NCBI GenBank assembly: GCA_963700285.1
Contig: CAVOXA010000001.1
Coordinates: 1,440,001-1,504,000 of the forward strand
Direction of reading: 5' to 3'
Length of the DNA: 64,000 bases
Source of the DNA: an uncultured Chloroflexia bacterium
GTDB lineage: Bacteria > Chloroflexota > Anaerolineae > JAAYZQ01
Below are positions 25,358 to 38,501 of the stretch, piece by piece. The first letter of the stretch is position 1; each line of letters starts with the position of its first letter. The position numbers and the translations under genes were made by a program. The notes beneath the pieces were generated by a model. The model saw nothing but the letters and a program-made list of their open reading frames with translations. It was not told the origin of the DNA and ran no database searches.

Positions 25358-26329
25358 CTATGGAATCCAGCGAAAGGTTAGATAGAAACTGGTGTGGAAG
25401 GTAAAGTCGGGGTGTTCCACTGTACCCATCCCCATTCCGGTGACGCGGTCGCTAGGGGCACCGCCTCCCACAAACGAGTCGTAGCTTCCCAGTGTATTGA
25501 ACATGGGAAAGTCGGCTCCCCATTCAGGCGGCGGGCCGGGCTTGACAAAGATGGTCAGATCTCCGCCCGGCCACTCGACGATCACCGGCTGGCCCGTTGC
25601 ACGCTCCCCATTTTCGTCCAAGACCTCGAAAAAGATGTTGTGCCGGCCGACCGACTCGATGGGGTCTGCCCATTGGGCCGCCACCAGGCGCCAGTGTGGC
25701 TGGCCTGGTTCTATGGGGGCAGGCTGGAGCGTGACACCCAGGTCATCCAATCGTGGGTCCCAATCGCGGGGAGGAAGATCTGAGGAATGCTCTCTGAGGA
25801 CAAGGGGCAGCGTGGCCGAACAAAGGTTGGCACAGGTGGTTATACGGGCAGTGCCACTGGCTCCTTCTGCTGTTGTAACTTGTACCTGGTTGGTCAGCGG
25901 CCCTGTGTAGCCCTCTGTGACTGTGACTACCAGCGTGTGCGTCCAGGCGCCGCCTGGCTTGATGAGGGCAGTCCATGCCTGGTGCCCACTGGCTGTGACC
26001 TGTGCCGGAAGCACGTCCGTGATGGTGGCTGTGAGAGTTACCCCACCCGTGTTTGTGATCTGCAAGGTATAGGTCAACTGCGCGCCATCCAGCACCGGTT
26101 GTGGGCTGGCCGTCTTGGCGACTTCCAGCGAGGCCAAAGACCTGCCAGCACCCCACACTGGGGCCGCCAGAAGGGGGCCGGTGGAGACATCAAAGCTGCG
26201 TTGCTTGACAGTTTGAACAGCCGGCGCAGCAGCCTGAGTGGCAGAAATCGAGATGAGGACAAGCATAGTCATCGATATCGCCAGACTTGAGATCAGGGCT
26301 AGTGCTATCTTTTGGCTTGACTTGGCCAT
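25358..26329 (-). CDS. Secreted DUF11-domain protein with an uncharacterised C-terminal domain
   Basis: Signal peptide; LEVAKTASP..G.QLTYTLQITNTG..ITDVLP (DUF11); LPLVLR; PRDWDPRL...HTSFYLTF. Confidence 0.75.
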   Translation of the reverse strand: MAKSSQKIALALISSLAISMTMLVLISISATQAAAPAVQTVKQRSFDVSTGPLLAAPVWGAGRSLASLEVAKTASPQPVLDGAQLTYTLQITNTGGVTLTATITDVLPAQVTASGHQAWTALIKPGGAWTHTLVVTVTEGYTGPLTNQVQVTTAEGASGTARITTCANLCSATLPLVLREHSSDLPPRDWDPRLDDLGVTLQPAPIEPGQPHWRLVAAQWADPIESVGRHNIFFEVLDENGERATGQPVIVEWPGGDLTIFVKPGPPPEWGADFPMFNTLGSYDSFVGGGAPSDRVTGMGMGTVEHPDFTFHTSFYLTFRWIP

Positions 26330-26726
26330 GTTTCCTCCTCTGCATCGATGAGCGCGTAACCTGGACCCAGGGGCGTAGTTGCATTCTATCGTAGATCTCT
26401 GGCAATGTCAATCTGACCCGCAGGACCGCAAATACTTCTGTCACAGCCCGAAATAACTGAAATCATCGATTTAGGATAGAAAAAACCAAAAGAAGTGGCT
26501 TTTGATCTCATAAAACATAGTATCGCCATTTGCACGCCGTTATGCGTAGGTTCTCATCAGAAAAAGGTTATAGACCCAAGGTCCCGTCAGAATCAGCCCT
26601 AATATCCTCCCTACGGAGCATGGCAATCGGGACGAAGCTATGGTACACTCGGATGCATAGGTATGAGACGATATCATTCATTATACCCAGAGATGGGTGA
26701 CTAGTCACTAAAAAGGAGGAGTTATC

Positions 26727-26921
26727 ATGGCAAGCGAACTGAGGCTTTTCACGGCCAAGGAGGCAGCGGCATATCTGCGGGTCAGCCCTTTCACCCTGCG
26801 CAAGATGGAAGAAATGGGCATGATCGTGCCTTATCGCACTCCCGGGGGACACCGACGCTATAGCCTGGACATGCTAAACGAGTATCTGGAGGAAAGCCGC
26901 GTCTTTCCGTCATCCCAGTAG
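26727..26921 (+). CDS. BldC/excisionase-like MerR-superfamily HTH protein, copy 1
   Basis: FTAKEAAAYLRVSPFTLRK..RTPGGHRRY; strong AGGAGG ribosome-binding site. Confidence 0.85.
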   Translation: MASELRLFTAKEAAAYLRVSPFTLRKMEEMGMIVPYRTPGGHRRYSLDMLNEYLEESRVFPSSQ

Positions 26922-27104
26922 AGCGTGCCTGCTACCACGGGGGCCGGGCAAAGGCAAAGCAACAACCTCTTCTTTGCAGGTACATGCTTTGTAGGTACCA
27001 AGAGCCCTGGGTCTGGCGTGGTGCTGTGCCGGACCCAGGGCTCTTGTTCGGGCCTTGGCTGCTCAGGCCCCACGAGGCTGTCGCACACGAGTTGTGGATG
27101 ATGT

Positions 27105-27468
27105 CTACGGAGCCGACGCGTCGGTCTGGTGAACCCCAAACACGTCTCCCTCAGTATCTTGGCAGCAGGCTTGATAGCCTACCTCTGGGACACTTGGGCT
27201 GGATAATCCTAGCGCCGGCAGCCTAGAGCTTGGCCAACACCTCGTCGATCGAGCCTCCCTGGCCGTAATCCAGTTGCTGGCCTTGGGATCGATACGCCTC
27301 AGCAGCGCGCCAGTGGTGCCCGGCCCTACATTTGGGTCGGTTGTGATCAGCCAGTAATCCACCGCCCATCCCACTTTGTATCTCCTAGTTGAATGCCTCG
27401 CGACAGAATCCGGCAGCTCGCTCTGGATCCGCTGCACTGATCTCAAAAGGGATGATTCTTGGCATCAT
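27105..27468 (-). pseudogene. Decayed VOC/glyoxalase family gene
   Basis: MPRIIPFEISAADPERAAGF...[TAG]...DYWLITTDP...GYQACCQDTEGDVFGVHQTD; in-frame stop plus frameshifts. Confidence 0.72.
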
Positions 27469-27574
27469 GTCCTCGGCCTCAACGACATGAAACTCACTGA
27501 ATAGACCATTTCTGCAACCTTTTCAGTGTTTCGGCGTATAGTGGGTTGAAATCAGACGAAAGGGGGGTGTTGCC

Positions 27575-27769
27575 ATGGCAATAGAGGTTAGGCTCTTGAC
27601 GGCCAAGGAAGCGGCCGACTACTTGCGGGTCAGCCCTTTCACGCTGCGCAAAATGGAGCGCATGGGCATGCTGGTACCGTACCGCACGCCAGGCGGCCAC
27701 CGGCGCTATAGCCTGGACATGCTGAACGAATATCTTGAAAACAGCCGCGTCCAGCCCTATCTGGTGTAG
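27575..27769 (+). CDS. BldC/excisionase-like MerR-superfamily HTH protein, copy 2
   Basis: 53 of 64 aa identical to copy 1 by manual count; same RTPGGHRRY motif. Confidence 0.85.
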   Translation: MAIEVRLLTAKEAADYLRVSPFTLRKMERMGMLVPYRTPGGHRRYSLDMLNEYLENSRVQPYLV

Positions 27770-27930
27770 GGCACCCAGACCGGTCCTCCGGCTACCGCTT
27801 GCAGGACCGGTTTGGGTGTCCTCTGGCTGCATTGGGCAAGCCAGAGTGTTTCGAAAGAAGGATATGCAGAGAGAGGCGACACCCGACCGGGTGCCGCCTC
27901 ATGTCTACCATCGTTTTTTGTGCTCTGCCG

Positions 27931-29194
27931 CTAGTTGCGGCCCTCCTGGCCAGCGGTCAGCCTCCGACCCAGGAACAACCCTGCAGCCGCGAGCCCGACA
28001 CCGCCCACGACGAGGATCCAAGCACTGTTGAGAGGCGTGCCACCCGTCTGCGGTACGTTTTCTGGTGCCGCGCCGGCAGAAGCGACCTGCCCTTCCAAGG
28101 AGGTCACACCTGTGAACAGGACCAACTCGCCAGAGCCAGGGGCGCCGACGCCGTTGGTCGTGACGTAGGCGTCACCTGCCGTCGTAAAGTCGATGGAGGT
28201 CGGGAATGACAAGCCACTGAGTACGGCTTCAGAAGCGCCCCCCTCCTTGATGCGGAGGATGGCGCCGCTGTTGGGGACGGGGCCCTGTTCAGTAAACTGG
28301 CCCATCTGCACGGCGTACAGCTGCCCATCAGGACCACTGCGCAAGTCGGTGATCATTGTCAACCCGGTCGCATAATCGCTGACCTGGCCATCGGCCGTCA
28401 CCTTTACCACCTTGGCTGAACCAGGCAGGAAGGGAAAGCCTGGCAGCAGCGAGACGTACATGTTGCCATCCCCGTCAAAGGCTACCGCAGTGGGCACCGG
28501 GTCCGTCTCCATAGCGCCGCCCCGTTCTGGATTGGGGAAGGGCCCTGGCAACCCGCCAAAGACGGCTACCAGATCCACCTGACCACTGCTGGGATCCACT
28601 TTGAGGAGCGTATTCCCACCAGCGTCAGCCACATACAGGCTTTCGTCCGGTCCGGCCGTGATGCCGTAGGGGTGCGAGTCCAGGATATTGGGGTCCGGGT
28701 TCTGCGCCTTCTCCAGCTCCCATAGTTCTGGCTACCTCGGTTGCCGCGCCGTCCTCGATCTTGACCACGGCGGCAGTGTTGGGCAGCGCCTCGTCGCTGA
28801 CAACCCCCAACCAGATGCCGCTTGTGGCATATACTGTGCCGTCCAGCAGCGCCAGGCGGGCGCCGCCGGTTGCCTCCTGGCCGACCAGGATCGAAGGCAA
28901 CGACGCGGCGACGGTCTGACTGCCATCGCTGGCAATCACGACCACGCGTGCCGAATCACCGATCTTGGCCGTGACCTCTTCCCCCGTCTCAGGATTCACA
29001 AAGGGGATATCGTCTTCGCCGCCAACGCCCGAGTCGATGACCCACACGCTTCCATCGGCGGCGACCAGTACACCCTGGGGGGCGTTGAACCCCCCGGCTA
29101 TCGTTGTGCCCCCGCCTTGGGCGCCAGCCACACTGGCCACCAAAAGGACCAGAACCAGCGCCAACCCTGTTACAGAAATTGTCTTCTTGCTCAT
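27931..29194 (-). CDS. ScyD/ScyE family beta-propeller protein with C-terminal sortase-like VPQTG-TM-RR tail (frameshifted at about 28630-28730)
   Basis: Signal peptide; ADAGGNTLLKV, DPVPTAVAFDGDGNMYVSLLPGFPF, TDLRSGPDGQLY, GLSFPTSI; VPQTGG + hydrophobic helix + GRR. Confidence 0.85.
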
Positions 29195-29293
29195 TTGTTT
29201 TCTCCTAAGGCTAATTTTTGGTATTCTATCCAGCCTTCTGAAGCCATGCGAACCTGGTTCGCCCAATGGCTTTGGAAGGTTGGGTTTGACCCT

Positions 29294-30028
29294 TTACTCC
29301 TGCGCCAGCAGCATCTGCACCAGGGCCAGGATCTGATCCTCGCTCAGAAAATCGTAGGCTGGCATGGGGTGACTGGTGATGCCGTACCCCGGTACAATGA
29401 ATGCTTTCGGATCCACTATGCTCTCGCGAATGTACTCTTTCGCGTTCGTGGCCGCGCCTCCGTACCCCTGCTCGCTAACGCGGCTCAGGGCGGTCGAGCC
29501 CAAACCTTCGTGTGTCGGGCCGAATGACCCTCCAGTGCCCGCCGCGCCGAGCTGGTGGCAGATGCCACAGAACTGGTCTTTGTAGACCTGCAGCCCGATA
29601 GTGGCCAAATCCTCCGCTGCCATGACCGGTGCAGCCGTCGGTGACGCCATAGTCGTCGCTGGTACCGTAGCGGTCGCCGCGGCGATGGTGCTTGCCGGGG
29701 CAGTTCGAGTGGGCGTCGGGTCGGGCGCTGGCTGTTCGGTGGGCTGCGTGGTCGGCGCGCGCGTTCTGGTAGCCGTAGGGAGGGAGACTCTGGCCGTGGC
29801 TGATGCCGCAGCCAGAGTGACTGCCGCAGCGGCCGGCTCGGGGTTGCTGCCAACTACTATGGTCGTGGCGGCGGACGCCGTGGCTGGGGCTTCCGTGACT
29901 ACAGTTGAGGTAACTGGCTCCGCTCGAACGCCTGAGCCAGGCTCTCTGCTCGGTGCCACACAACTCGTGAGCAACGCGGCCAGTATCAGCGTCCATGTCA
30001 GCAACCAGCCTGCGCGGAGTTTGTCCAT
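29294..30028 (-). CDS. Lipoprotein monoheme cytochrome c with Pro/Thr/Ala-rich linker
   Basis: Lipobox LLTSC; CGICH; GSFGP; EYIRESIVDPKAFIVPGY; HPMPAY (Met ligand). Confidence 0.88.
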   Translation of the reverse strand: MDKLRAGWLLTWTLILAALLTSCVAPSREPGSGVRAEPVTSTVVTEAPATASAATTIVVGSNPEPAAAAVTLAAASATARVSLPTATRTRAPTTQPTEQPAPDPTPTRTAPASTIAAATATVPATTMASPTAAPVMAAEDLATIGLQVYKDQFCGICHQLGAAGTGGSFGPTHEGLGSTALSRVSEQGYGGAATNAKEYIRESIVDPKAFIVPGYGITSHPMPAYDFLSEDQILALVQMLLAQE

Positions 30029-30052
30029 CTTGACTGTACCCCCGCCTCTGGC

Positions 30053-30346
30053 TCAGGCGTGCTCGTGACGGATGACCTTTCCGTCGCGCCACTCAGGATC
30101 GGCCTGGAGAAGTTGCCTCATCTTGAGGTACAGTTCGTGGCTTTCGGCAGATTCCGAATATGCCCGGTAGGCTTCCTGGCTCTCGGAGATGGCCACGACC
30201 CAGATCTCGTTGGGGTCGGCGTCCATCTGGAAGACAGACAGGGAAACCGCGCCACCCGGACTATGCCCTCCATCCATATCCATCATTTCGCTCAGTTCCT
30301 CCAACCTGCCTGGCCTAACCTTCATGCTAGCGATGCTGCCGTACAT
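30053..30346 (-). CDS. Antibiotic biosynthesis monooxygenase (ABM)-like dimeric alpha/beta barrel protein
   Basis: MKVRPG..., VAISESQEAYRAYSES, PEWRDG; 97 aa with GGGAGG ribosome-binding site. Confidence 0.7.
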   Translation of the reverse strand: MYGSIASMKVRPGRLEELSEMMDMDGGHSPGGAVSLSVFQMDADPNEIWVVAISESQEAYRAYSESAESHELYLKMRQLLQADPEWRDGKVIRHEHA

Positions 30347-30488
30347 GCGTACCTCCCGCTTCTACTGTTTTAGCCATTCTATCACTTCTGGTTGGCCGAA
30401 GACCAGCCTAGTGGGCAGAGCAGTGATGATGCTGTGCTGTTTGCCCTCGGGTCTGCTGTACACACACTTGGCAGCAGGACCTGCTCGT

Positions 30489-30896
30489 TCATAGACACCT
30501 GCACAGCAGGTCTAACAGCTTGGCTGTGCCCCATGCCTCACGAATCCGGCCGCCGGAGAAACGCATTACTACAGCGCCCTTTGTCGTCCCCCCCTCATGT
30601 CTGGCAAGATGGCTCTTGGTCGAGCCGGGGAGGCAGCCCTCGATCGCGTACCGGACCGCGACCTTGTCCCCGGTGGCGTACATCTCTTCAATGGTAAGGC
30701 GTTCGTAGGGGAAGCCTGCGACGGCGGTACTGATCCAGTGCTTGTACCGGCTTCGGCCGGAGGTGATCCCGAGTTGGGTGCCATGCTCGACAAAATCGTC
30801 GGCGTACAGGCTGTCGACAACATCCAGATTGCCATGGTTCCAGACTTCATGGAGCGCTTGTTGGGCGCTTTGCCTATTGGTTTCAAGCGTAGACAT
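30489..30896 (-). CDS. SnoaL-like ester cyclase family protein
   Basis: EVWNHGNLDVVDSLYADDFVEH, AGFP, GDKVAVRY, RFSGGRIREAW. Confidence 0.8.
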   Translation of the reverse strand: MSTLETNRQSAQQALHEVWNHGNLDVVDSLYADDFVEHGTQLGITSGRSRYKHWISTAVAGFPYERLTIEEMYATGDKVAVRYAIEGCLPGSTKSHLARHEGGTTKGAVVMRFSGGRIREAWGTAKLLDLLCRCL

Positions 30897-30986
30897 GGGG
30901 TTGGCCTCCCTTCTTGTATCTCTTTCGGCTGACAGCAAGGGTAAATAACGTAATAGAGATTATTTATATCATGTCTAGCAGTCTGA

Positions 30987-31022
30987 ATTCTATCAGTTCA
31001 GTGCATACAAAATGCATACAGC
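30987..31022 (-). promoter_or_regulatory. Promoter with 11-bp-spaced direct repeats (ester cyclase gene)
   Basis: Minus strand cTGTATGCAt-TTTGTATGCA...; 14 nt from TTTGT to TAGAAT. Confidence 0.7.
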
Positions 31023-31037
31023 CAGGCCTGAACGAAA

Positions 31038-31069
31038 GAGGCTCCACCTCTTCGAAGAGGTGGAGCCTC
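31038..31069 (-). terminator. Intrinsic terminator
   Basis: GAGGCTCCACCTCT-tcga-AGAGGTGGAGCCTC followed by TTTCGTT on the minus strand. Confidence 0.8.
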
Positions 31070-31090
31070 GCTACTGCATTTTACCCTTTC

Positions 31091-31339
31091 TCAGCAGCAC
31101 TGTTCTTTGGGCGTGGGTGGCCTGGTAATCCAGGATCGAGCTGCGGCCTTTGTTCTCCCGGCTGAGGCTGCCAGCTGACTGAGCCCAGCCCGGATCTGGG
31201 CCAGCCGGCTGTCCACTAGCGCGAGTTCCGAACCGCCATGTCGCAGGTGTTTTGCCTGGTTTGCCTGCTCCGCTTCCTTGAGCCACTGGTTCGGGACCAT
31301 ATTGTTCTCGTAAGCAACCATGAACCATTCATCGTACAT
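31091..31339 (-). CDS. Small hypothetical protein (82 aa, ends EQCC)
   Basis: AAAGGAG ribosome-binding site before ATG 31339; helical WLKEAEQANQAKHL segment; terminator directly downstream. Confidence 0.68.
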   Translation of the reverse strand: MYDEWFMVAYENNMVPNQWLKEAEQANQAKHLRHGGSELALVDSRLAQIRAGLSQLAASAGRTKAAARSWITRPPTPKEQCC

Positions 31340-31535
31340 CGTTGATCTCTCCTTTGACCGAAGGCCAATTCCTGCGCACAAAATGACACGTTCGCAGAAG
31401 GGAGGCTTCGGTAGTCAAACAAAAGGGACTTCTGTCTTGACTTAGAAAGCTGCGCTAGCCTGTGGCCAACCCACTGGGCAGCGCAAAGCGAGCAATTCTT
31501 GTGGGCCGGCCAAACGCTGCCCTTTGAGATCGAGA

Positions 31536-31574
31536 CAAGTGCCGGATGAGGGCGTCGCCCTCATCCAGCACTTG
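31536..31574 (-). terminator. Stem-loop downstream of the NPELK-repeat gene
   Basis: CAAGTGCcGGATGAGGGCG-t-CGCCCTCATCCaGCACTTG; weak U tract. Confidence 0.6.
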
Positions 31575-31591
31575 CTTGGCTGCGTAGTTAC

Positions 31592-32143
31592 CTAGCAGCC
31601 ACAGTATTGCTCAAATGCGGACAGTTCCGGGTTCACGGAGCCTTCGCCCGAGTTTGCCACTGCCGCTGAACTACCTTCCCAGCCGCTGGCGTACTTTGCC
31701 TCAGGGTTCTCGGCATAGAAGTCAGAGCCTGCTGCTGCCGAGCCACCGCTCCAATTGCTTGCGTACTTTAGCTCGGGATTCTGGACCAAAAAGTCCGACG
31801 CCACTGCTGCTGAGCCGCTGAAGGACTTTAGCTCAGGATTCGTTGCCAACTCTGCGGCATTCTGGGCAACTACCACGCTGTTCCCTTGGCCATAAAAGCC
31901 GGCCAGGGCTTCGTACCGGCTGGTACCGGCTGCATAGCTGGCCTCGAGCCTCTGGGCTGTATAGTACTGCCCCAAGGCTGCCAGCCGGGCGGAGCCGGCG
32001 TCAATGCCGTTTGAGGCACCCCCGTTGTCGGCTGATACTGGCAGGATCACCAGCACCAGAAGGAGTGCCGTCGTCAATACGACCAATTGGGTCTTTGCCA
32101 TACGTTTCTGCTTGCCAGATCTGGATGTGAAAAAGCTTGTCAT
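31592..32143 (-). CDS. Secreted protein with NPEL/NPEA repeats, ends YCGC
   Basis: GGAGGAG ribosome-binding site; signal peptide ...LLLVLVILPVSA; four NPE(L/A) repeats. Confidence 0.8.
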   Translation of the reverse strand: MTSFFTSRSGKQKRMAKTQLVVLTTALLLVLVILPVSADNGGASNGIDAGSARLAALGQYYTAQRLEASYAAGTSRYEALAGFYGQGNSVVVAQNAAELATNPELKSFSGSAAVASDFLVQNPELKYASNWSGGSAAAGSDFYAENPEAKYASGWEGSSAAVANSGEGSVNPELSAFEQYCGC

Positions 32144-32206
32144 CTTCTCTCCTCCGTTCTACCTCGTTAGATTGATTTGACTGAATCTGTTCTGAACCAC
32201 GATTGC

Positions 32207-32253
32207 AGTGTAGCACACGGATGTGCACAAACTCACTACAAAACGCGTACAAA
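32207..32253 (-). promoter_or_regulatory. Promoter with three 11-bp-spaced TTTGT boxes
   Basis: Plus-strand ACAAA at 32227, 32238 and 32249; 14 nt to TACACT (32207-32212), TG-extended. Confidence 0.75.
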
Positions 32254-32376
32254 GCAGTGGTGGGCAAAAATACTGCAAGGAAACGCTGCTATCCCCAGGC
32301 AACAGCAGCGCAGAGTCAGAGTGCTGGCGATACCGGTCGCGACCGGCCATGCCTGGCCAGAGATTGGCCAAGAAGA

Positions 32377-32640
32377 TCAGACGCACCGGCCTGCGGAGAA
32401 TAGGTGCGCGTCTTCCCCGCGCAGGATCGACCGCACTAACTCGTAGTGCGCCAACCGTTCGGCTAGCACGACCCGGCGATAGTCCAACTCGCACAACAGC
32501 CAGTTAGCCCGGCGAGCATACCAGCGTGGTTGCGATCGCCTGATCTCCTGGATTATCTTTTGGTATGCGTTCTCACGCATGATATCTTTGACAAGAGCCT
32601 CGTGTTCTGTACGTACGGTTTGAGCATCCCTAGGAATCAT
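32377..32640 (-). CDS. Small protein, paralogue 3 of the CE(L/M)D family
   Basis: LLCELDYRRVVLAERLAHYELVRSILRGE...GRCV; GAGGAG ribosome-binding site. Confidence 0.78.
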   Translation of the reverse strand: MIPRDAQTVRTEHEALVKDIMRENAYQKIIQEIRRSQPRWYARRANWLLCELDYRRVVLAERLAHYELVRSILRGEDAHLFSAGRCV

Positions 32641-32688
32641 GATGAGTCTCCTCTGTATTCTGTCAGTTTCCTGGCACTGCAACCAGTA

Positions 32689-32943
32689 TTAGCTACAGTG
32701 CCCGGAGGAATACTTGCTCGCCTCGTCTGCATGAAGGATGGACTGTACCAAGTCGTAGCGTTCCAACCTTTGGGCGAGCACTACTCGATGATGGTCCAGC
32801 TCGCACAGCAATCGGTCAAGCTGATGCAACAGCCATCGCCGCTGCCCATGCCGCCTGATCACTCGCGTCTGCTTCGGCAGCATGGCCTCCTGGAGGCGCA
32901 GGTGGTAGAGCGATTCTTCCACTTGATAGTCTGGATGTAGCAT
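32689..32943 (-). CDS. Small protein, paralogue 2 of the CE(L/M)D family
   Basis: LLCELDHHRVVLAQRLERYDLVQSILHADE...GHCS; GAGG ribosome-binding site. Confidence 0.78.
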   Translation of the reverse strand: MLHPDYQVEESLYHLRLQEAMLPKQTRVIRRHGQRRWLLHQLDRLLCELDHHRVVLAQRLERYDLVQSILHADEASKYSSGHCS

Positions 32944-33027
32944 TGTCCTCACTCCATTGCCTGTTTCTGCTATCTTGTCTGCGGATGCGATCTCCCTCGC
33001 GAGACAGCAACCTTAGCTCGGAATGAG

Positions 33028-33063
33028 AACCTACCATGAGAGTGCCTACGGATTGCATACAAA
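33028..33063 (-). promoter_or_regulatory. Promoter with 11-bp-spaced repeats (paralogues 2 and 3)
   Basis: Minus strand TTTGTATGCAa-TCCGTAGGCA...; 14 nt from TCCGT to TAGGTT, TG-extended. Confidence 0.6.
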
Positions 33064-33108
33064 GCCGCATGCTGGCGACGCAAATGTGCATTGCCAGCAT
33101 GCGGCTTT
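33061..33108 (-). terminator. Intrinsic terminator after paralogue 1
   Basis: AAAGCCGCATGCTGGC...GCCAGCATGCGGCTTT, a 16-bp inverted repeat. Confidence 0.75.
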
Positions 33109-33136
33109 GGTACTCCTGCCGGATGACGTAATTCGA

Positions 33137-33403
33137 CTACCTACACTGACTCGTGGAGAAAAAGCTCGTTTCGCCAGCGCGCAGGATGGACTGCGCCATG
33201 TCAAATCGTTCCAGCCGCTGGGCGAGGGCCAAGCGCTGATAGTCCATCTCACAGCGCAGTCGATCCGCGTACTTGGAAAGCCGGCTCTCTTGCCTCTGTC
33301 CTTGGCTTGCTGCACGCCTCAATCGATGGGCGTCCAGGTCGCTCACGGTGTCTTGCTCATGCCTGGCCAGGATTGCTTCACCAGCGCCAAAGTCGATATA
33401 CAT
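33137..33403 (-). CDS. Small protein, paralogue 1 of the CE(L/M)D family
   Basis: LRCEMDYQRLALAQRLERFDMAQSILRAGE...SQCR; GGGAGG ribosome-binding site. Confidence 0.78.
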   Translation of the reverse strand: MYIDFGAGEAILARHEQDTVSDLDAHRLRRAASQGQRQESRLSKYADRLRCEMDYQRLALAQRLERFDMAQSILRAGETSFFSTSQCR

Positions 33404-33489
33404 GTTGTGCCTCCCTTCGAAGCGTCAGCCAAAATGCTTGGGTTGCTGTCAAGGGAAATCCGGCAGCCTTCCCCTCACCCTTGCAGCAT

Positions 33490-33568
33490 ATTGTACCGGA
33501 GCAGGGATTACAAAGTGTTTACAATGCAGGCGCTTGAAGGGGGAGTGTTGTATGCAGAGATGCATACA
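33490..33568 (-). promoter_or_regulatory. Promoter with 11-bp-spaced TTGTAA repeats plus an upstream palindrome
   Basis: Minus strand ATTGTAAacacTTTGTAA; 14 nt from TTTGT to TACAAT; TGTATGCA-gaga-TGCATACA at 33549-33568. Confidence 0.7.
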
Positions 33569-33640
33569 GGGAGAAGAGCCAACGGTCATTCTGTGCCCAG
33601 ATTTTGGGCCTGGCTTGACCGCCGGAAGGAGAGACGGGGG

Positions 33641-36600
33641 TCAAACGTCCAGTTTTTTCAGCACCTGGCTGGCCAATCGCTGGTCGTACGCGGCCCCCGT
33701 TGCCTGAGCCAACGCCAGTGCTTGGTGGGCGTAGGAGACAGCCTCGGCACGGTCGCCGGCGATGTCGTAGGCTTGGGCCAATCCTGACAACAGCCAGCTC
33801 TGCTCCGTGCAGGAGCCGATCTCCTGAGCCAGCGCCAAGCCCGCTTGCAGGTGTTGTATTGCCTCCGACGGGTGCTCCAGGCGTACGTTCAACCAACCCA
33901 GGTGCGTGTGGCACAGGATCTCCTGGGTGCGGTCCGCCGCCCCGCGGGCTATGGAGAGACTCTCTTCCAGAGATATCCGCGCCAGTGCCACGTCACCCAT
34001 GGCCCCGGCCGCAGCACCCATATCCCCAAGGGGCAGGCGCCGCTCCAGGTGCAGGCCGGCGGCCTCGCACCGCTCCAGAGCTTGTTGGGCCAGGTCCATT
34101 GCTTGCCTGCAATCATTTTCGTACCAGGAGAGGGTGGCCAGATTGCCCAGGGTATGAATCTCGTGGACGGTCTCGCCCAGCTCGATAAACTGTCCCAGCG
34201 CTTGCTCTAGATCTTCCCTGGCCAGGTCATAGTCGCCCAGGGCCCGCGCTGCGAGGCCGGACTCGCGCCGGCACATCGCCTCCAGCAGGCGATCCTCTGC
34301 TTCCAGGCTCAGCCGAATGCCGTCCACAGCGCTGGTCCGAGCGTCGGAGAAGCGGCAGAACCAACGGTGGCCGTAGGCTTCCCGCCACCGAAGGTGGGCC
34401 ATGGTCTGTGAGTCGCCCAGAGACGCGGCCAGACGAGCCACCGCTTCCGCATCTTGGGCGTAGGCCTCCATGTCGCCGAGCAGGCGCAGTGCCCAGCCTC
34501 GCTCGTACAGTGCTTCGACCCGGAGTCGCTGGTTGGCGGTCACAGCCTCCGGCCCTTCGAGGTCAACGGCTTCCCACTCCAACAGTTCCAGCGCCTTGTC
34601 AAAGTAGGCGCGCGCTTCGATGTGGGCAAAGACCTGCTTGGCTGTCCGGCCAGCCTGCAGAGCATAGGGTGCCGCTCGACCGGGCTGACCTGCACGCTCG
34701 AAATGTCGGGCCAGTGCCCCTGCATTGGCAGGGTCCAGCCGCTCCAGCGCTTCTCCTGCCCGCCGGTGCAATACTTCTCTGCGCTGGCGACTCAACTGCT
34801 GGTATACAGCCGTCCGGATCATCTCGTGGCGGAACCAATACCCGGTGGCCCCCTCCTCCACCAGGTTCCGTGCCACCACTTCATCAAGGCTGTCCACAGT
34901 CTCCATCTCACCTCTCCCGGACGTTTGACGTGCCAGCGCGAAACTGAAAGACCTGCCCAGGACTGCGCCAGATTCCAGTACCTGCCGAGCTCTGGGGCTG
35001 AGGCGCGCCACCCGTTCCTTGACGGCATCTAGGACGCTGTCGGGAAGGCATAGGGAATCAGCATCCACTAGCTCCTCTGGCTTGCATCCGGCCTCCATGA
35101 GCGACCGTACTGTCTCCAGGAGGAAGAAGGGATTGCCACCGGTGGCCTGTACGAGGCTGCGGACCAGATTCTGGTCACAAGGCAGAATGGCTTCAAGGGG
35201 CTTGAGCAGCTTCTGGATCTCGGCTTCGTTGAGCCCTGTGAGTGGCAGTTCAGTCAGCATGCCCTCTCGGGCCAAGCCCTGGCGCAGATTGAGGACGGTA
35301 TCAGCTTCTTCGCTGCGATAGGTTCCCAGGATCAGCAGCCTGGGGCGGGCTGCATGGGCCAGTTGCCTGCCCACGTAGACCAGCCAATCCAAGGTTGTTC
35401 CGCCAGCCCAGTGGAGGTCATCCAAGCAAAGGAGGACTGGTTGCGGGCCAGCTGCCAGGGCCAACAGGATCTGGTACAGCGCCTCAAATAGCGTAGCCTG
35501 TTCCGAACTGGCCATCGCTGTGGGCGGCATTTCAGGGTGCATGTGGCGCAGTTCAGGTATCAAGCGGCACACCTCGGCGTGACACCAGTCGGCAACCTCC
35601 AACCGATCATGGCGGGTCAGGAGCGCAGGCCGCAATGCCTCTGCCAGTGGCTGATAGGGACTCGATTGCGTGTCTGGATAGGCTGCGCCTACCAGTACCA
35701 GTGCCTCCTCACCCAGGCCCGCAGCAAATTCCTGCATCAACCGCGACTTGCCGATGCCGGGCTCGCCCGAGATGAGGAGAATTCCTCCCTGGCTCTCTCG
35801 GGTGAGGGCAAAAGCATCCTCCATCTGCCGAAGCGACTCGCCTCTCCCGACCAGCTCCACGTCGAGTCCTGGATGCGTGGTCCAGGTCACTTCTACAATG
35901 GGCTTGTGCTCCGCGTCGGGCCAGGGGGCCAGCCTGGGCTGAGGTGCTGGCGCCGCCTCCCCAAGCGGCCCATAGCTTGCCAGAGCAGCCTGGTAAGCCG
36001 CATGGGTCTCTGGAAGTGGCTCTACGCCCAGTTCGTTCTCCAAGATCGTGATGCAGTGGTTATACTGGCGTAGTGCCCCGCTGCGGTCTCCCACGGCCAC
36101 GTATAGTTCGATCACCCGACGATGAATGTCCTCGGCCAGATCGTCGGTTTCCAGATACTTTTGGGCGTAGGCAAGGGCTGAGTCATAGTTGCCTTCAGCA
36201 ATTCCATAGTCGATTAAAGCCGTGAGGGCTTCCAGGTAGACCCGCTCGCAGCTCTCACGTTCCACTGTCATCCAGCTCTCATACTCTGGACCATCAGGCA
36301 TTGAGAACCCGTGGAGGAACGGTCCCCGGTAGTGAGCTACGGCTTGCTGGAGTGCCGCCTGGGGCGCCGCCGAGGGTTGGCTGGCGCACAGACGCTCAAA
36401 GGCTACAAGATCTGACCATGACTGCCGGGGATCCAGTCCGATGTGATCCTCCTGCACGACCAGGACCTCCGGATCGGGCAGATCTCGCCGAAGGTGAGCG
36501 AGCAGGCCAGAAAGCTTGCGACGGGCGGTAAGCTCGGGAACGTCAGGCCAAAATAGAAAAGCCAGGTACTCACGGGGGATGGTGTCTCTCGAAGCTGCTA

Positions 36601-36730
36601 GCCGGAATAGCAGGGCGCGTACCTGGCGGCGCGAGATGGACAGGCGCCGACCTGCCCATTTCGTCGCGGGTGCTCCCAGCAAATAGACCTGCAGAATGGC
36701 TTTGGTATCTACAGTGGGCTTATCGATCAT
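33641..36730 (-). CDS. BTAD/SARP-family transcriptional regulator with AAA/STAND ATPase and TPR domains
   Basis: LQVYLLGAP, REYLAFLFWPD, YRGPFLHG, EDIHRRVIELY, ELGVEPLPET (BTAD); GEPGIGKS; LDDLHWA; GGNPFFLLE; FRHEMIR; TPR C-terminus. Confidence 0.93.
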   Translation of the reverse strand: MIDKPTVDTKAILQVYLLGAPATKWAGRRLSISRRQVRALLFRLAASRDTIPREYLAFLFWPDVPELTARRKLSGLLAHLRRDLPDPEVLVVQEDHIGLDPRQSWSDLVAFERLCASQPSAAPQAALQQAVAHYRGPFLHGFSMPDGPEYESWMTVERESCERVYLEALTALIDYGIAEGNYDSALAYAQKYLETDDLAEDIHRRVIELYVAVGDRSGALRQYNHCITILENELGVEPLPETHAAYQAALASYGPLGEAAPAPQPRLAPWPDAEHKPIVEVTWTTHPGLDVELVGRGESLRQMEDAFALTRESQGGILLISGEPGIGKSRLMQEFAAGLGEEALVLVGAAYPDTQSSPYQPLAEALRPALLTRHDRLEVADWCHAEVCRLIPELRHMHPEMPPTAMASSEQATLFEALYQILLALAAGPQPVLLCLDDLHWAGGTTLDWLVYVGRQLAHAARPRLLILGTYRSEEADTVLNLRQGLAREGMLTELPLTGLNEAEIQKLLKPLEAILPCDQNLVRSLVQATGGNPFFLLETVRSLMEAGCKPEELVDADSLCLPDSVLDAVKERVARLSPRARQVLESGAVLGRSFSFALARQTSGRGEMETVDSLDEVVARNLVEEGATGYWFRHEMIRTAVYQQLSRQRREVLHRRAGEALERLDPANAGALARHFERAGQPGRAAPYALQAGRTAKQVFAHIEARAYFDKALELLEWEAVDLEGPEAVTANQRLRVEALYERGWALRLLGDMEAYAQDAEAVARLAASLGDSQTMAHLRWREAYGHRWFCRFSDARTSAVDGIRLSLEAEDRLLEAMCRRESGLAARALGDYDLAREDLEQALGQFIELGETVHEIHTLGNLATLSWYENDCRQAMDLAQQALERCEAAGLHLERRLPLGDMGAAAGAMGDVALARISLEESLSIARGAADRTQEILCHTHLGWLNVRLEHPSEAIQHLQAGLALAQEIGSCTEQSWLLSGLAQAYDIAGDRAEAVSYAHQALALAQATGAAYDQRLASQVLKKLDV

Positions 36731-36850
36731 GGCCTATCCTCATAGGCATCTGGTGCCTTGGAGCTTCATCTACTTTGTCTGGACCTAGTGCAGACGGCGT
36801 CCGCGCGCTGCTCCAAGAGCGTTCCGCCGGGAAAGATCCTCAATGCGACC

Positions 36851-37765
36851 CTATTGCCCTCGCTGATCGCGAGGGAGTCTGAGCTTGGCGTCGATAAAGA
36901 CCTCGTGGGGAAGCTTGAGGGCGTTGGCGACACTCCGGATCTCTTCGATCTCCTCGTAGCATGCCTGACCATCGGCAGCGGCTACGGCGAAAAGAACGTC
37001 GAGAAAGCCAGCGCGTTCCTCGTAGGTACACGCATCCGCAAACTCGCGTGCGAGGCGGTAGCGGTCCAGGTGAGACGCGGTTTCATCGACCGCCACATCT
37101 GCCACAAAGCTAGCCTGTTCGCGGGTCAGGTACCAGTGCGTTTCGAGAGCGTCGACCATTACCTCTACTTCAGGGTCTGTGACTTGAGGGTTTGCGCGGG
37201 CGACCTGGGCCATCACGCCACCTGCCAGACTCAGGGTTCGCAGCGTTTCCTCACCCAGGTCCAGTTCTGCCTCACCCTCATCCAAGCGGCGGCGAACGCC
37301 ATAGTAGACCCGGTTCTTTACATAGTCCTCGAAATAGTCCTCCCGATTTGGGGCATCTGCCAGCGCCGTAGAGCGCCGGCCAGTCATGCCCTTGGTCAGG
37401 CGCGAGAACAGGCCAAAATCGACCGACTCGATAGCGGCCTCTATCTCTGCGACGACCGCCTGTTCGTCCCCGGTGACCTCACCATCGGCCATCACCATCT
37501 CTTCCAGGGCTCTGAGGGTCAGAGCACGGTCTCCTGGCTTCTGAATCGCGCTGCGCAAATCCTCAACCAGACGCTCGCGTTCAGCGTCACCGACGGGGGT
37601 CTCGATGTACATTTCCAGTCGAGCCCACTGGAGGGCAGTGAGTTGGGGCATTCGGTAGAGGAGGTCTTTCATACTATTGATCTCCTCATTCGTTAGCTCT
37701 CCATCGGCCCAGGCTGCAGCGATAAGCACCTTGGCCAGTTTCACGATCAACTGTTCTTCCGACAT
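36851..37765 (-). CDS. Tandem TerB-family (tellurite resistance-like) domain protein
   Basis: AAAWADGELTNEE, MVMADGEVTGDE, VAAADGQACYEE. Confidence 0.85.
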   Translation of the reverse strand: MSEEQLIVKLAKVLIAAAWADGELTNEEINSMKDLLYRMPQLTALQWARLEMYIETPVGDAERERLVEDLRSAIQKPGDRALTLRALEEMVMADGEVTGDEQAVVAEIEAAIESVDFGLFSRLTKGMTGRRSTALADAPNREDYFEDYVKNRVYYGVRRRLDEGEAELDLGEETLRTLSLAGGVMAQVARANPQVTDPEVEVMVDALETHWYLTREQASFVADVAVDETASHLDRYRLAREFADACTYEERAGFLDVLFAVAAADGQACYEEIEEIRSVANALKLPHEVFIDAKLRLPRDQRGQ

Positions 37766-37838
37766 ACGAATCGGTCTCCTCGGGTAAGGTGTTCACCCGG
37801 CGGCTGGGTCCGGCGGACCTGACGCGGGCTACCAGGCT

Positions 37839-38501
37839 CTACTCCTCTGAGTCCAGGAGGCAGTAGCCGACCCCGCGCACCGTGCGCAGCAGGGTGGGTT
37901 TCCTGGGTTCATTTTCGATCTTTTGGCGCAGCCAGCAGATGTGGACGCTGAGCGTGCGGGTATCCCCCACATAGTCGGTTTCCCACACCTGCTTCATGAT
38001 CTCCTGGCGGCTGACCACTCTACCTGCATTGCCCATGAGCAGGGCCAGCACACTTGCTTCCCTGGGCCGGAGCTGCCAGCTCTGTCCACCCCTGTGTAAC
38101 ACGCGACTATCCAGATCCAACACCAGGGAACCAACCTGGATCTGTCGGAAGGTGATATGCTCAGCGGCGACTCTGATCCGGTGCAGCAGCTTGCGTGAGG
38201 TGAAGGGACGAGTCATGAATGCCTCTGCGCCGCTGCCTGCGGCCTGATGTCCTTCCTCCAGGAGCAATACTGTCGGCACGCCCGCCAGGCGGCTACGGAC
38301 AATATCACTCACTGCGTACCCCCTCGGGCCAAAGGAGGCGACGTCAATCACCAGCAGGTTGGGGCGTAAGGACCGGATCTGGCCCATGGCTTGGCGTTGG
38401 TTGTGGGCCACTCCCACCTGATAGCCCTTCCGCTGGAGGCTGGGGACCAAAGAGTCAGCGGCCGAAATGTCGTTTTCGACAAATAGGATTCTTAGCCTCA
38501 C
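37839..38501 (-). CDS. OmpR/PhoB-family response regulator (no adjacent kinase)
   Basis: ILFVEND, PNLLVID, MTRPF, VWETDYVGDTRTLSVHICWLRQKIE, LRTVRGVGY; GTG start is inferred. Confidence 0.88.
   Translation of the reverse strand: MRLRILFVENDISAADSLVPSLQRKGYQVGVAHNQRQAMGQIRSLRPNLLVIDVASFGPRGYAVSDIVRSRLAGVPTVLLLEEGHQAAGSGAEAFMTRPFTSRKLLHRIRVAAEHITFRQIQVGSLVLDLDSRVLHRGGQSWQLRPREASVLALLMGNAGRVVSRQEIMKQVWETDYVGDTRTLSVHICWLRQKIENEPRKPTLLRTVRGVGYCLLDSEE

Follow-up and report, generated by a model that had tools for sequence, protein, structure and literature searches.

Six adjacent minus-strand genes of an uncultured Chloroflexia bacterium, here named g1 to g6, raise the question why neighbouring proteins of four families should all carry a cysteine as their last or penultimate residue. 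The genes lie in a 64,000-nucleotide stretch of DNA (the window; positions 1,440,001 to 1,504,000 of contig CAVOXA010000001.1, assembly GCA_963700285.1), and their products end with SQCR, GHCS, GRCV, YCGC, EQCC and CRCL, respectively. A reading made from the sequence alone had pointed out this run and proposed a shared C-terminal thiol handle. The six genes and their Cys ends are real and conserved, selection on the C-terminal thiol is supported by comparison of homologous sequences, and the cluster is best read as an AfsR/afsS-like regulon. The function favoured for the tails, binding of a soft metal ion or sulfane sulfur, is put forward tentatively.

The six genes and their ends

All six minus-strand open reading frames showed the ends that the sequence-only reading had given, and no further genes were called between them.

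33137..33403, minus strand: g1, 88 residues; predicted single long helix with a disordered tail; Cys51 and penultimate Cys87 (SQCR)
32689..32943, minus strand: g2, 84 residues; paralogue of g1; end GHCS
32377..32640, minus strand: g3, 87 residues; paralogue of g1; end GRCV
31592..32143, minus strand: g4, 183 residues; hydrophobic signal-like N-terminal segment; NPEL repeats; terminal CxC (YCGC)
31091..31339, minus strand: g5, 82 residues; PxE[QE]CC tail; own promoter box not found
30489..30896, minus strand: g6, 135 residues; SnoaL-fold protein; family end QQLG replaced by CRC[LVE]

All products are shorter than 200 residues. A GGAG-type ribosome site was clear at the start used in five genes, and for g4 it was found at the upstream ATG at 32143. 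The cluster recurs in genome G001 (g1 and g3 to g6, with g2 missing) and on the metagenome contig L017 (g1 and g4 to g6), each gene with its terminal Cys, and the dN/dS ratios against the orthologues were 0.16–0.56 in all nine pairs (g2 had no pair). The genome is 89% complete and includes many frameshifts, and a polished sequence might have moved the stops. The stops nevertheless held: short-read RNA contigs, G001 and L017 repeat the same ends, every stop region was covered at least once by the RNA contigs, and no differences were listed at Cys or stop codons. The RNA contig over g5 stops six letters beyond the stop codon.

The gene set is apparently transcribed, contigs from all four sediment metatranscriptome runs covering parts of the cluster. 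None of the four runs included RNA contigs over the regulator gene that precedes g1, and contigs were sparse over the next 20 kb. The runs were chosen because they hold the cluster, and therefore the contrast in coverage with the neighbouring DNA ranks nothing.

The division into four unrelated families, also proposed earlier, stands because the profiles of g1–g3 and g5 showed no detectable homology (probability 0.4%); the two groups are nonetheless alike in being short proteins with a similar layout. No Pfam or NCBIfam matches above the cut-off were found for g1 to g5, and an ESM Atlas search with g1 gave only weak leads to hypothetical proteins (best 0.85). The structure model of g1 consists of one 76-residue helix with a low-confidence tail, and on this model the protein probably oligomerises. 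The g4 product is predicted to be exported on account of its signal-like segment. The g6 product had the only match of the six in the NCBIfam scan, a weak one of SnoaL type, and passed the Pfam cut-off for the SnoaL-like polyketide cyclase family (PF07366). Its model has the SnoaL fold (TM-score about 0.7–0.78), again with a low-confidence tail. In g6 and its cluster orthologues (3/3) the THxG motif of the family is replaced by Cys and a late Asp by Lys, at what we take to be the catalytic positions of the family.

Conservation and gain of the terminal Cys

In the g1–g3 family the terminal Cys was present in 29 of the 31 matches and in 10 of 16 more distant ones, altogether 39 of 47. Four of the 31 matches were this genome or nearly identical to it, and the low-complexity long matches P0058, P0066 and P0067 were removed from a set of 28 before the count. 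When the internal and terminal Cys of the g1 family were compared (n = 47, not phylogenetically independent), 42 sequences had both, three had neither, two had the internal one only and none the terminal one only. The CC of the g5 family was invariant in 14 of 14 aligned rows, down to 22% identity, and the terminal Cys was present in all ten protein matches; the tail remains constant while the body diverges. Among the matches of g4, YC[GS]C was kept in seven of nine, the two exceptions being NPEL-repeat proteins at 25% identity, and the NPEL paralogue in the same genome does not have a terminal Cys. All three cluster orthologues of g6 end with CRCx where the SnoaL family has QQLG, and none of 32 other SnoaL matches has a Cys end.

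The genes also differ at the codon level. Among 22 gene ends read as DNA the Cys codons vary between TGC and TGT and the stops between TAA, TAG and TGA, and in none of the 22 was a TGA aligned with a conserved Cys (most protein matches were without DNA). Since the codons for Cys and for stop both vary, and a TGA is never found in place of a Cys, it is the Cys residue itself on which selection acts. Exactly two Cys were present in all 19 non-SnoaL gene copies read at the DNA level. A g5-like copy of G001 includes one internal TGA at a non-Cys position and was read as a broken copy.

Comparison of the sequences indicates that the SnoaL and NPEL families gained the terminal Cys in their cluster lineages. 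Of the earlier proposal of a handle, the selected C-terminal thiol thus stood, by its conservation in homologues, by the TGC/TGT codons and by these gains, whereas Rab-type prenylation is not supported. Class-wide profile searches with g5 and g4 found only G001, one g5-like copy in G002 and weak matches among the genomes searched, and the cluster does not extend beyond one genus and further relatives.

Promoter box and regulator

What the sequence-only reading had not seen is the linkage of the genes through a common SARP-type promoter box and an adjacent regulator.

33641..36730, minus strand: AfsR-like regulator, 1029 residues; BTAD, AAA/STAND ATPase and TPR domains; Cys888 and Cys940 invariant in eight aligned regulators
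33490..33523, minus strand: SARP-type box before g1; a pair of TGTR repeats with an 11-bp spacing, followed after 8 nt by a -10 hexamer
33028..33061, minus strand: SARP-type box before g2; in G001, which has no g2, it stands before g3
32207..32240, minus strand: SARP-type box before g4
30987..31020, minus strand: SARP-type box before g6; top-scoring site of the whole genome

The regulator gene directly precedes the six genes, and its product matched PF03704, PF13191 and PF13424 above the cut-off. Its score against the NCBIfam AfsR equivalog was 47, far under the cut-off of 1430, and it is therefore called AfsR-like and not AfsR. In the box the -10 hexamer lies 17 nt from the start of the second TGTR repeat, and this spacing equals the geometry of SARP promoters. 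These have direct repeats with an 11-bp period, of which the last lies 8 bp ahead of the -10 element, according to the portion of PMC10936776 available. Altogether 12 box sites with this geometry were present across the window, G001, L017 and contig C14.

A matrix trained solely on seven sites from G001 and L017 was used to scan the genome of the window. The sites before g6, g4, g1, a g1-like gene on C14, and g2 were all within the top six. The site ranked seventh stands before an unrelated exported repeat protein, a fifth family, which ends with CEVC; both box and ending are kept in G001. Two relatives sharing the repeats of this protein do not have the CEVC ending and were not flagged in any box scan. 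The exact box pattern had ten matches in the genome of the window as opposed to one with the reversed control, and seven as opposed to four in G001. The box was also found 3' of all four close orthologues of the regulator in other families, and of neither of two distant ones, and it adjoins BTAD genes in G011 and G017.

Judging from these sequences, the adjacent AfsR-like regulator likely reads the box of g1, g2, g4 and g6. Since a box with SARP geometry is repeated in the cluster and present behind orthologues of the regulator, the cluster is best read as an AfsR/afsS-like regulon.

Chance of such a run

The sequence-only reading had called for a comparison with the proteome-wide frequency of Cys. 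Among the last two residues a Cys occurred in 148 of 6486 genes (147 of 6546 in another count), and a terminal Cys pair (CC, CxC or CxxC, plus at most one residue) in 23 of 6486. These base rates come from a purpose-made codon-model gene caller applied to a frameshift-rich genome; it accepted five of the six cluster genes, the score of g2 being below the threshold. Over 20,000 shuffles, runs of at least five genes appeared twice and runs of at least four 25 times. With the cluster collapsed to four families, 0.0018 runs were expected per genome, or about four per an assumed 15 million genes, and therefore the run alone is suggestive but not decisive. For three adjacent pair-ended genes with a Cys-ended neighbour, the expectation was 0.03 per 15 million genes.

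RNA hairpins

33064..33105, minus strand: strong terminator-like hairpin after g1
31536..31574, minus strand: long palindromic hairpin between g4 and g5
31038..31069, minus strand: terminator-like hairpin of 14 pairs after g5

The hairpins after g1, g4 and g5 formed with and without a masked ribosome footprint in all three genomes, while g2 to g3 shows an overlapping hairpin in the window only. An Rfam scan of window positions 26000–38000 gave no matches.

Possible roles of the tails

In the reading we favour, to which we give somewhat less than an even chance, the regulator targets g1 to g6, whose exposed thiol pairs would bind a soft metal ion or sulfane sulfur. The regulator would bind the box and turn on four separate promoters when its own Cys-bearing TPR domain senses the inducing signal. 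The unrelated products each carry a Cys pair of which one thiol or both lie at the free C-terminus, and these would serve as exposed ligands for the ion or the sulfur. The helical products of g1–g3 and that of g5 would work in the cytoplasm, those of g4 and the distant CEVC gene outside it, and the altered SnoaL protein g6 would be a binding protein and not a cyclase, all products together forming a multi-compartment thiol sink or hand-over set.

Ligand chemistry is preferred because each protein has two thiols, the tail is free and the gain has occurred repeatedly. Published precedents, each taken from a part of its source, point in the same direction: the penultimate Cys of DsrC takes sulfur on a flexible arm (PMC3397948), the repeated CC motifs of the SAO locus have been interpreted as metal handling (10.1101/2022.07.06.499078), and 396 of 2034 CC-stop proteins fall in metalloprotein groups (PMC7246954). 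In G001, DsrE-like genes follow g5-type EECC genes at two loci; one of these was tested against Pfam, and its protein does not have Cys.

Several points weigh against this reading. The ligand of the tails is something we infer, and a single ligand for all is an assumption, as the endings differ in spacing. The six-gene cluster includes no metal transporters or sulfur enzymes, and a tblastn search of the same genome with the DsrE-like protein of G001 gave no matches. The chance of such a run across a wide scan is not nil, and the conservation of g6 is based on three copies with 78–84% identity. Three other strong box sites of the genome precede genes without a terminal Cys, so that the box is not sufficient; EECC and CEQC genes stand at other BTAD loci of this genus, so that it is not necessary either. 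In orthologous regulons of other genera the first gene past the box was Cys-ended in one of eight loci, and the TPR cysteines of the regulator are retained also where the cluster is absent. The idea that neighbours of BTAD genes are generally Cys-ended was rejected (2/143 small, 0/97 middle and 0/75 long genes at 67 loci of other genera). The terminal-Cys tag is a lineage feature, enriched in the regulon but not defining it.

A bolder version, which we find unlikely though well worth stating, is that unrelated cytoplasmic and exported products have convergently gained a C-terminal Cys address that would be read by one machine, be it a thiol-tail relay, a bacterial Cys-tail modifying enzyme or the TPR sensor of the regulator. 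One rival, with a fairly small chance of being right, takes the tails as docking peptides for the regulator's TPR domain, perhaps via a bridging metal, in an AfsS-like feedback on AfsR. TPR domains can bind free C-termini, and the g5 tail is invariant on a diverging body. AfsS moreover binds AfsR and increases its DNA affinity, as stated in a portion of PMC10832544. However, the four tails have only Cys in common, export is predicted for the g4 and CEVC proteins, genes of this kind are missing beside orthologous regulators whose TPR cysteines are the same, and EECC genes also adjoin a different regulator subfamily. Also improbable is that several families have gained the terminal Cys as an address tag, a handle for a trans-acting enzyme of lipidation, glycosylation, decarboxylation or ligation. 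The repeated gain at the extreme end of unrelated proteins would agree with this, as would the three ICMT-like domains of the genome, but such domains exceeded the cut-off in 4 of 14 control genomes as well. No modifying enzyme was found at the locus in three genomes, two PF02441 proteins are located elsewhere in the genome, and one Cys would suffice where the proteins have two. The earlier statement that no prenyltransferase is present agrees with the genome having no match to PF00432 or PF01239, a negative limited by its 89% completeness and by controls that stayed below the cut-off. Ligand-free structural disulfides, closing coiled coils and exported repeat proteins or cross-linking them, would fit the two Cys per protein, their coupled loss in the g1 family and the long, probably oligomerising helix of g1. 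We rate them as improbable: by established chemistry intrachain disulfides of adjacent CC and CxC are strained and the cytoplasm disfavours disulfides, and the gain of CxC in the SnoaL protein would be left unexplained.

It may also be that the families have each retained the terminal Cys for separate reasons and that the shared locus reflects ancestry and chance. The roughly four runs of Cys-ended families expected by the collapsed count favour this, as do the absence of a Cys ending from most other box targets and the limitation of the cluster to one genus and further relatives. Against it stand the far lower expectation for three adjacent pair-ended families with a fourth Cys-ended one, the fifth family (CEVC), which has both box and ending, and the coincidence of the SnoaL and NPEL gains with cluster membership; the chance we allow it is small. 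Much less probable is a role in translation, by cysteine-sensing stalling or attenuation, or a Cys residue that shortens the life of the protein. Mycobacterial polycysteine short open reading frames attenuate (10.1101/834739), and Mycoplasma reporters with a terminal Cys reached 0.76–0.79 of the level (PMC7246954), both according to parts of the sources. Attenuation is unlikely, given that footprint masking does not make the hairpins after g1, g4 and g5 switch in any of the three genomes; besides, g2, g4 and g6 have boxes of their own, Cys codons number just one or two, and purifying selection acts on the proteins as a whole. Assembly errors or selenocysteine read-through have next to no chance. 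The genome is rich in frameshifts, one of them in the neighbouring ScyD/E gene, but independent assemblies refute the first by their identical ends, and no TGA aligns with a Cys while all three stop codons are used.

Our preferred function for the tails remains that of ligands for a soft metal ion or sulfane sulfur. The locus is of value as a compact, well-delimited set of apparently transcribed genes, for which an operator can be predicted, from a Chloroflexota lineage that has been little studied. It also shows cleanly how the same chemistry at the protein end was gained several times while genes were being recruited to a regulon. Should a ligand or a reader common to the tails exist, it would tell what an AfsR-like regulator from outside the streptomycetes responds to and governs, and might bring to light a C-terminal Cys tag not known from bacteria. 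A Cys address, if true, would add a new system of C-terminal tagging, one that Chloroflexota express in sediment.

Further box sites and BTAD loci

An orphan box followed by g1-like and g5-like genes, with no regulator near, is located at G000:C14:1031885-1032611 (L001) and is likely a distant member of the regulon. At G000:C5:168134 a high-scoring box precedes a gene for a 105-residue protein, MoaD/ThiS-like by eye but without a Pfam match or GG end. A box-like site (score 24) lies upstream of an ordinary SnoaL gene without terminal Cys at L064 (G268). An array in G002 includes two small Cys-ended genes with no regulator in view.

At the BTAD loci of G001, 6 of 61 small genes were Cys-ended, several of them frameshift fragments. 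Two groups recurred at the BTAD loci of the family (L080–L159). One is the YxSFLLRLW family, 60–90 residues, of which 39 copies stood beside BTAD regulators, one of the 39 being Cys-ended (the one copy scanned had no Pfam match). The other is a pair of a short membrane peptide and a protein of about 105 residues starting MKHK. Two near-identical genes for 64-residue BldC-like helix-turn-helix proteins are present in the window (26727-26921 and 27575-27769, plus strand), and in G001 a second BTAD regulator, two EECC genes and one DsrE-like gene lie between the BldC-like pair.

Other Cys-ended and look-alike proteins

Exported repeat proteins in general were rejected as a Cys-ended class, since one of eight had such an end; the heuristic that picked them overlooked g4 as well as the CEQC protein, whose relatives in G001 do not have that ending. 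Exported tandem-repeat proteins with unrelated repeats and CExC at or near the end are encoded at G000:C1:101098, C7:108221 and C10:1436289, the one on C7 facing another BTAD gene. Helical proteins of 70–85 residues with a g1-like layout but no terminal Cys, some in tandem, are found at G000:C10:88384, C10:138681, C22:107466 and C22:295831-296762. In the window, an exported protein of the ScyD/ScyE family (27931-29194, minus strand) is split by a frameshift. Its first piece ends PVCG by accident, and this ending at 28625 was rejected as a seventh member, being a frameshift product.

Comparison with known systems

The locus and its box are apparently undescribed, as literature searches in a collection short of subscription papers showed no paper on them.

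Rab geranylgeranylation motifs are CC and CXC, and the ends of g5 (CC) and g4 (CxC) resemble them. The likeness ends there: no prenyltransferase subunit was found, there is no GTPase substrate, the endings are mixed (Cx, CC, CxC and CxCx), and g4 is predicted to be exported. No modifying enzymes of the type acting on ribosomally synthesised and post-translationally modified peptides were found among the flanking genes in three genomes. Polycysteine attenuator reading frames differ in their Cys tract, as here there are one or two Cys codons and the main hairpins are unchanged by masking. The g6 product matches the SnoaL-like family (PF07366) in profile and fold, but its THxG motif, late Asp and QQLG tail are replaced and the cluster has no polyketide genes.

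With DsrC/TusE, g1–g3 share a penultimate Cys on a flexible tail and a second conserved Cys, and the DsrE-like neighbours of the g5-type genes of G001 recall the DsrE donors. Unlike DsrC/TusE, g1 is one long helix with no Pfam or NCBIfam match and no likeness in sequence or fold, and the genome has a separate DsrC-like gene elsewhere. By inspection only, a DsrC/TusE-like gene that has both C-terminal Cys was identified at G000:C10:781740-784034, with membrane and Fe-S proteins encoded after it.

The SaoC protein of the SAO locus, a Cys-Cys-COOH (seleno)protein, is, as predicted for g4, an exported protein without a known family and with a Cys pair at its end, and in both loci the theme of Cys pairs runs across unrelated proteins. 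The differences are that g1 to g6 show no SAO homology in the NCBIfam scan and do not have the nine-gene neighbourhood, that the ABC transporter, the MerB-like lyase and selenocysteine are absent from this cluster, and that the terminal pair is restricted to SaoC there while six genes are Cys-ended here.

The closest parallel in arrangement is AfsR–AfsS of Streptomyces, in which a BTAD–ATPase–TPR regulator is likewise directly followed by a small gene and the 11-bp direct repeats stop 8 nt short of the -10 element. The phylum and the box sequence are different, and the cluster has six genes and four boxes instead of one. No AfsS homology was seen in the cluster, and the terminal cysteines have no counterpart in AfsS as far as the available parts of the sources describe it. 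The cluster is accordingly a variant of the known AfsR/afsS-like type of regulon, to which an unexplained convergent tail has been added.

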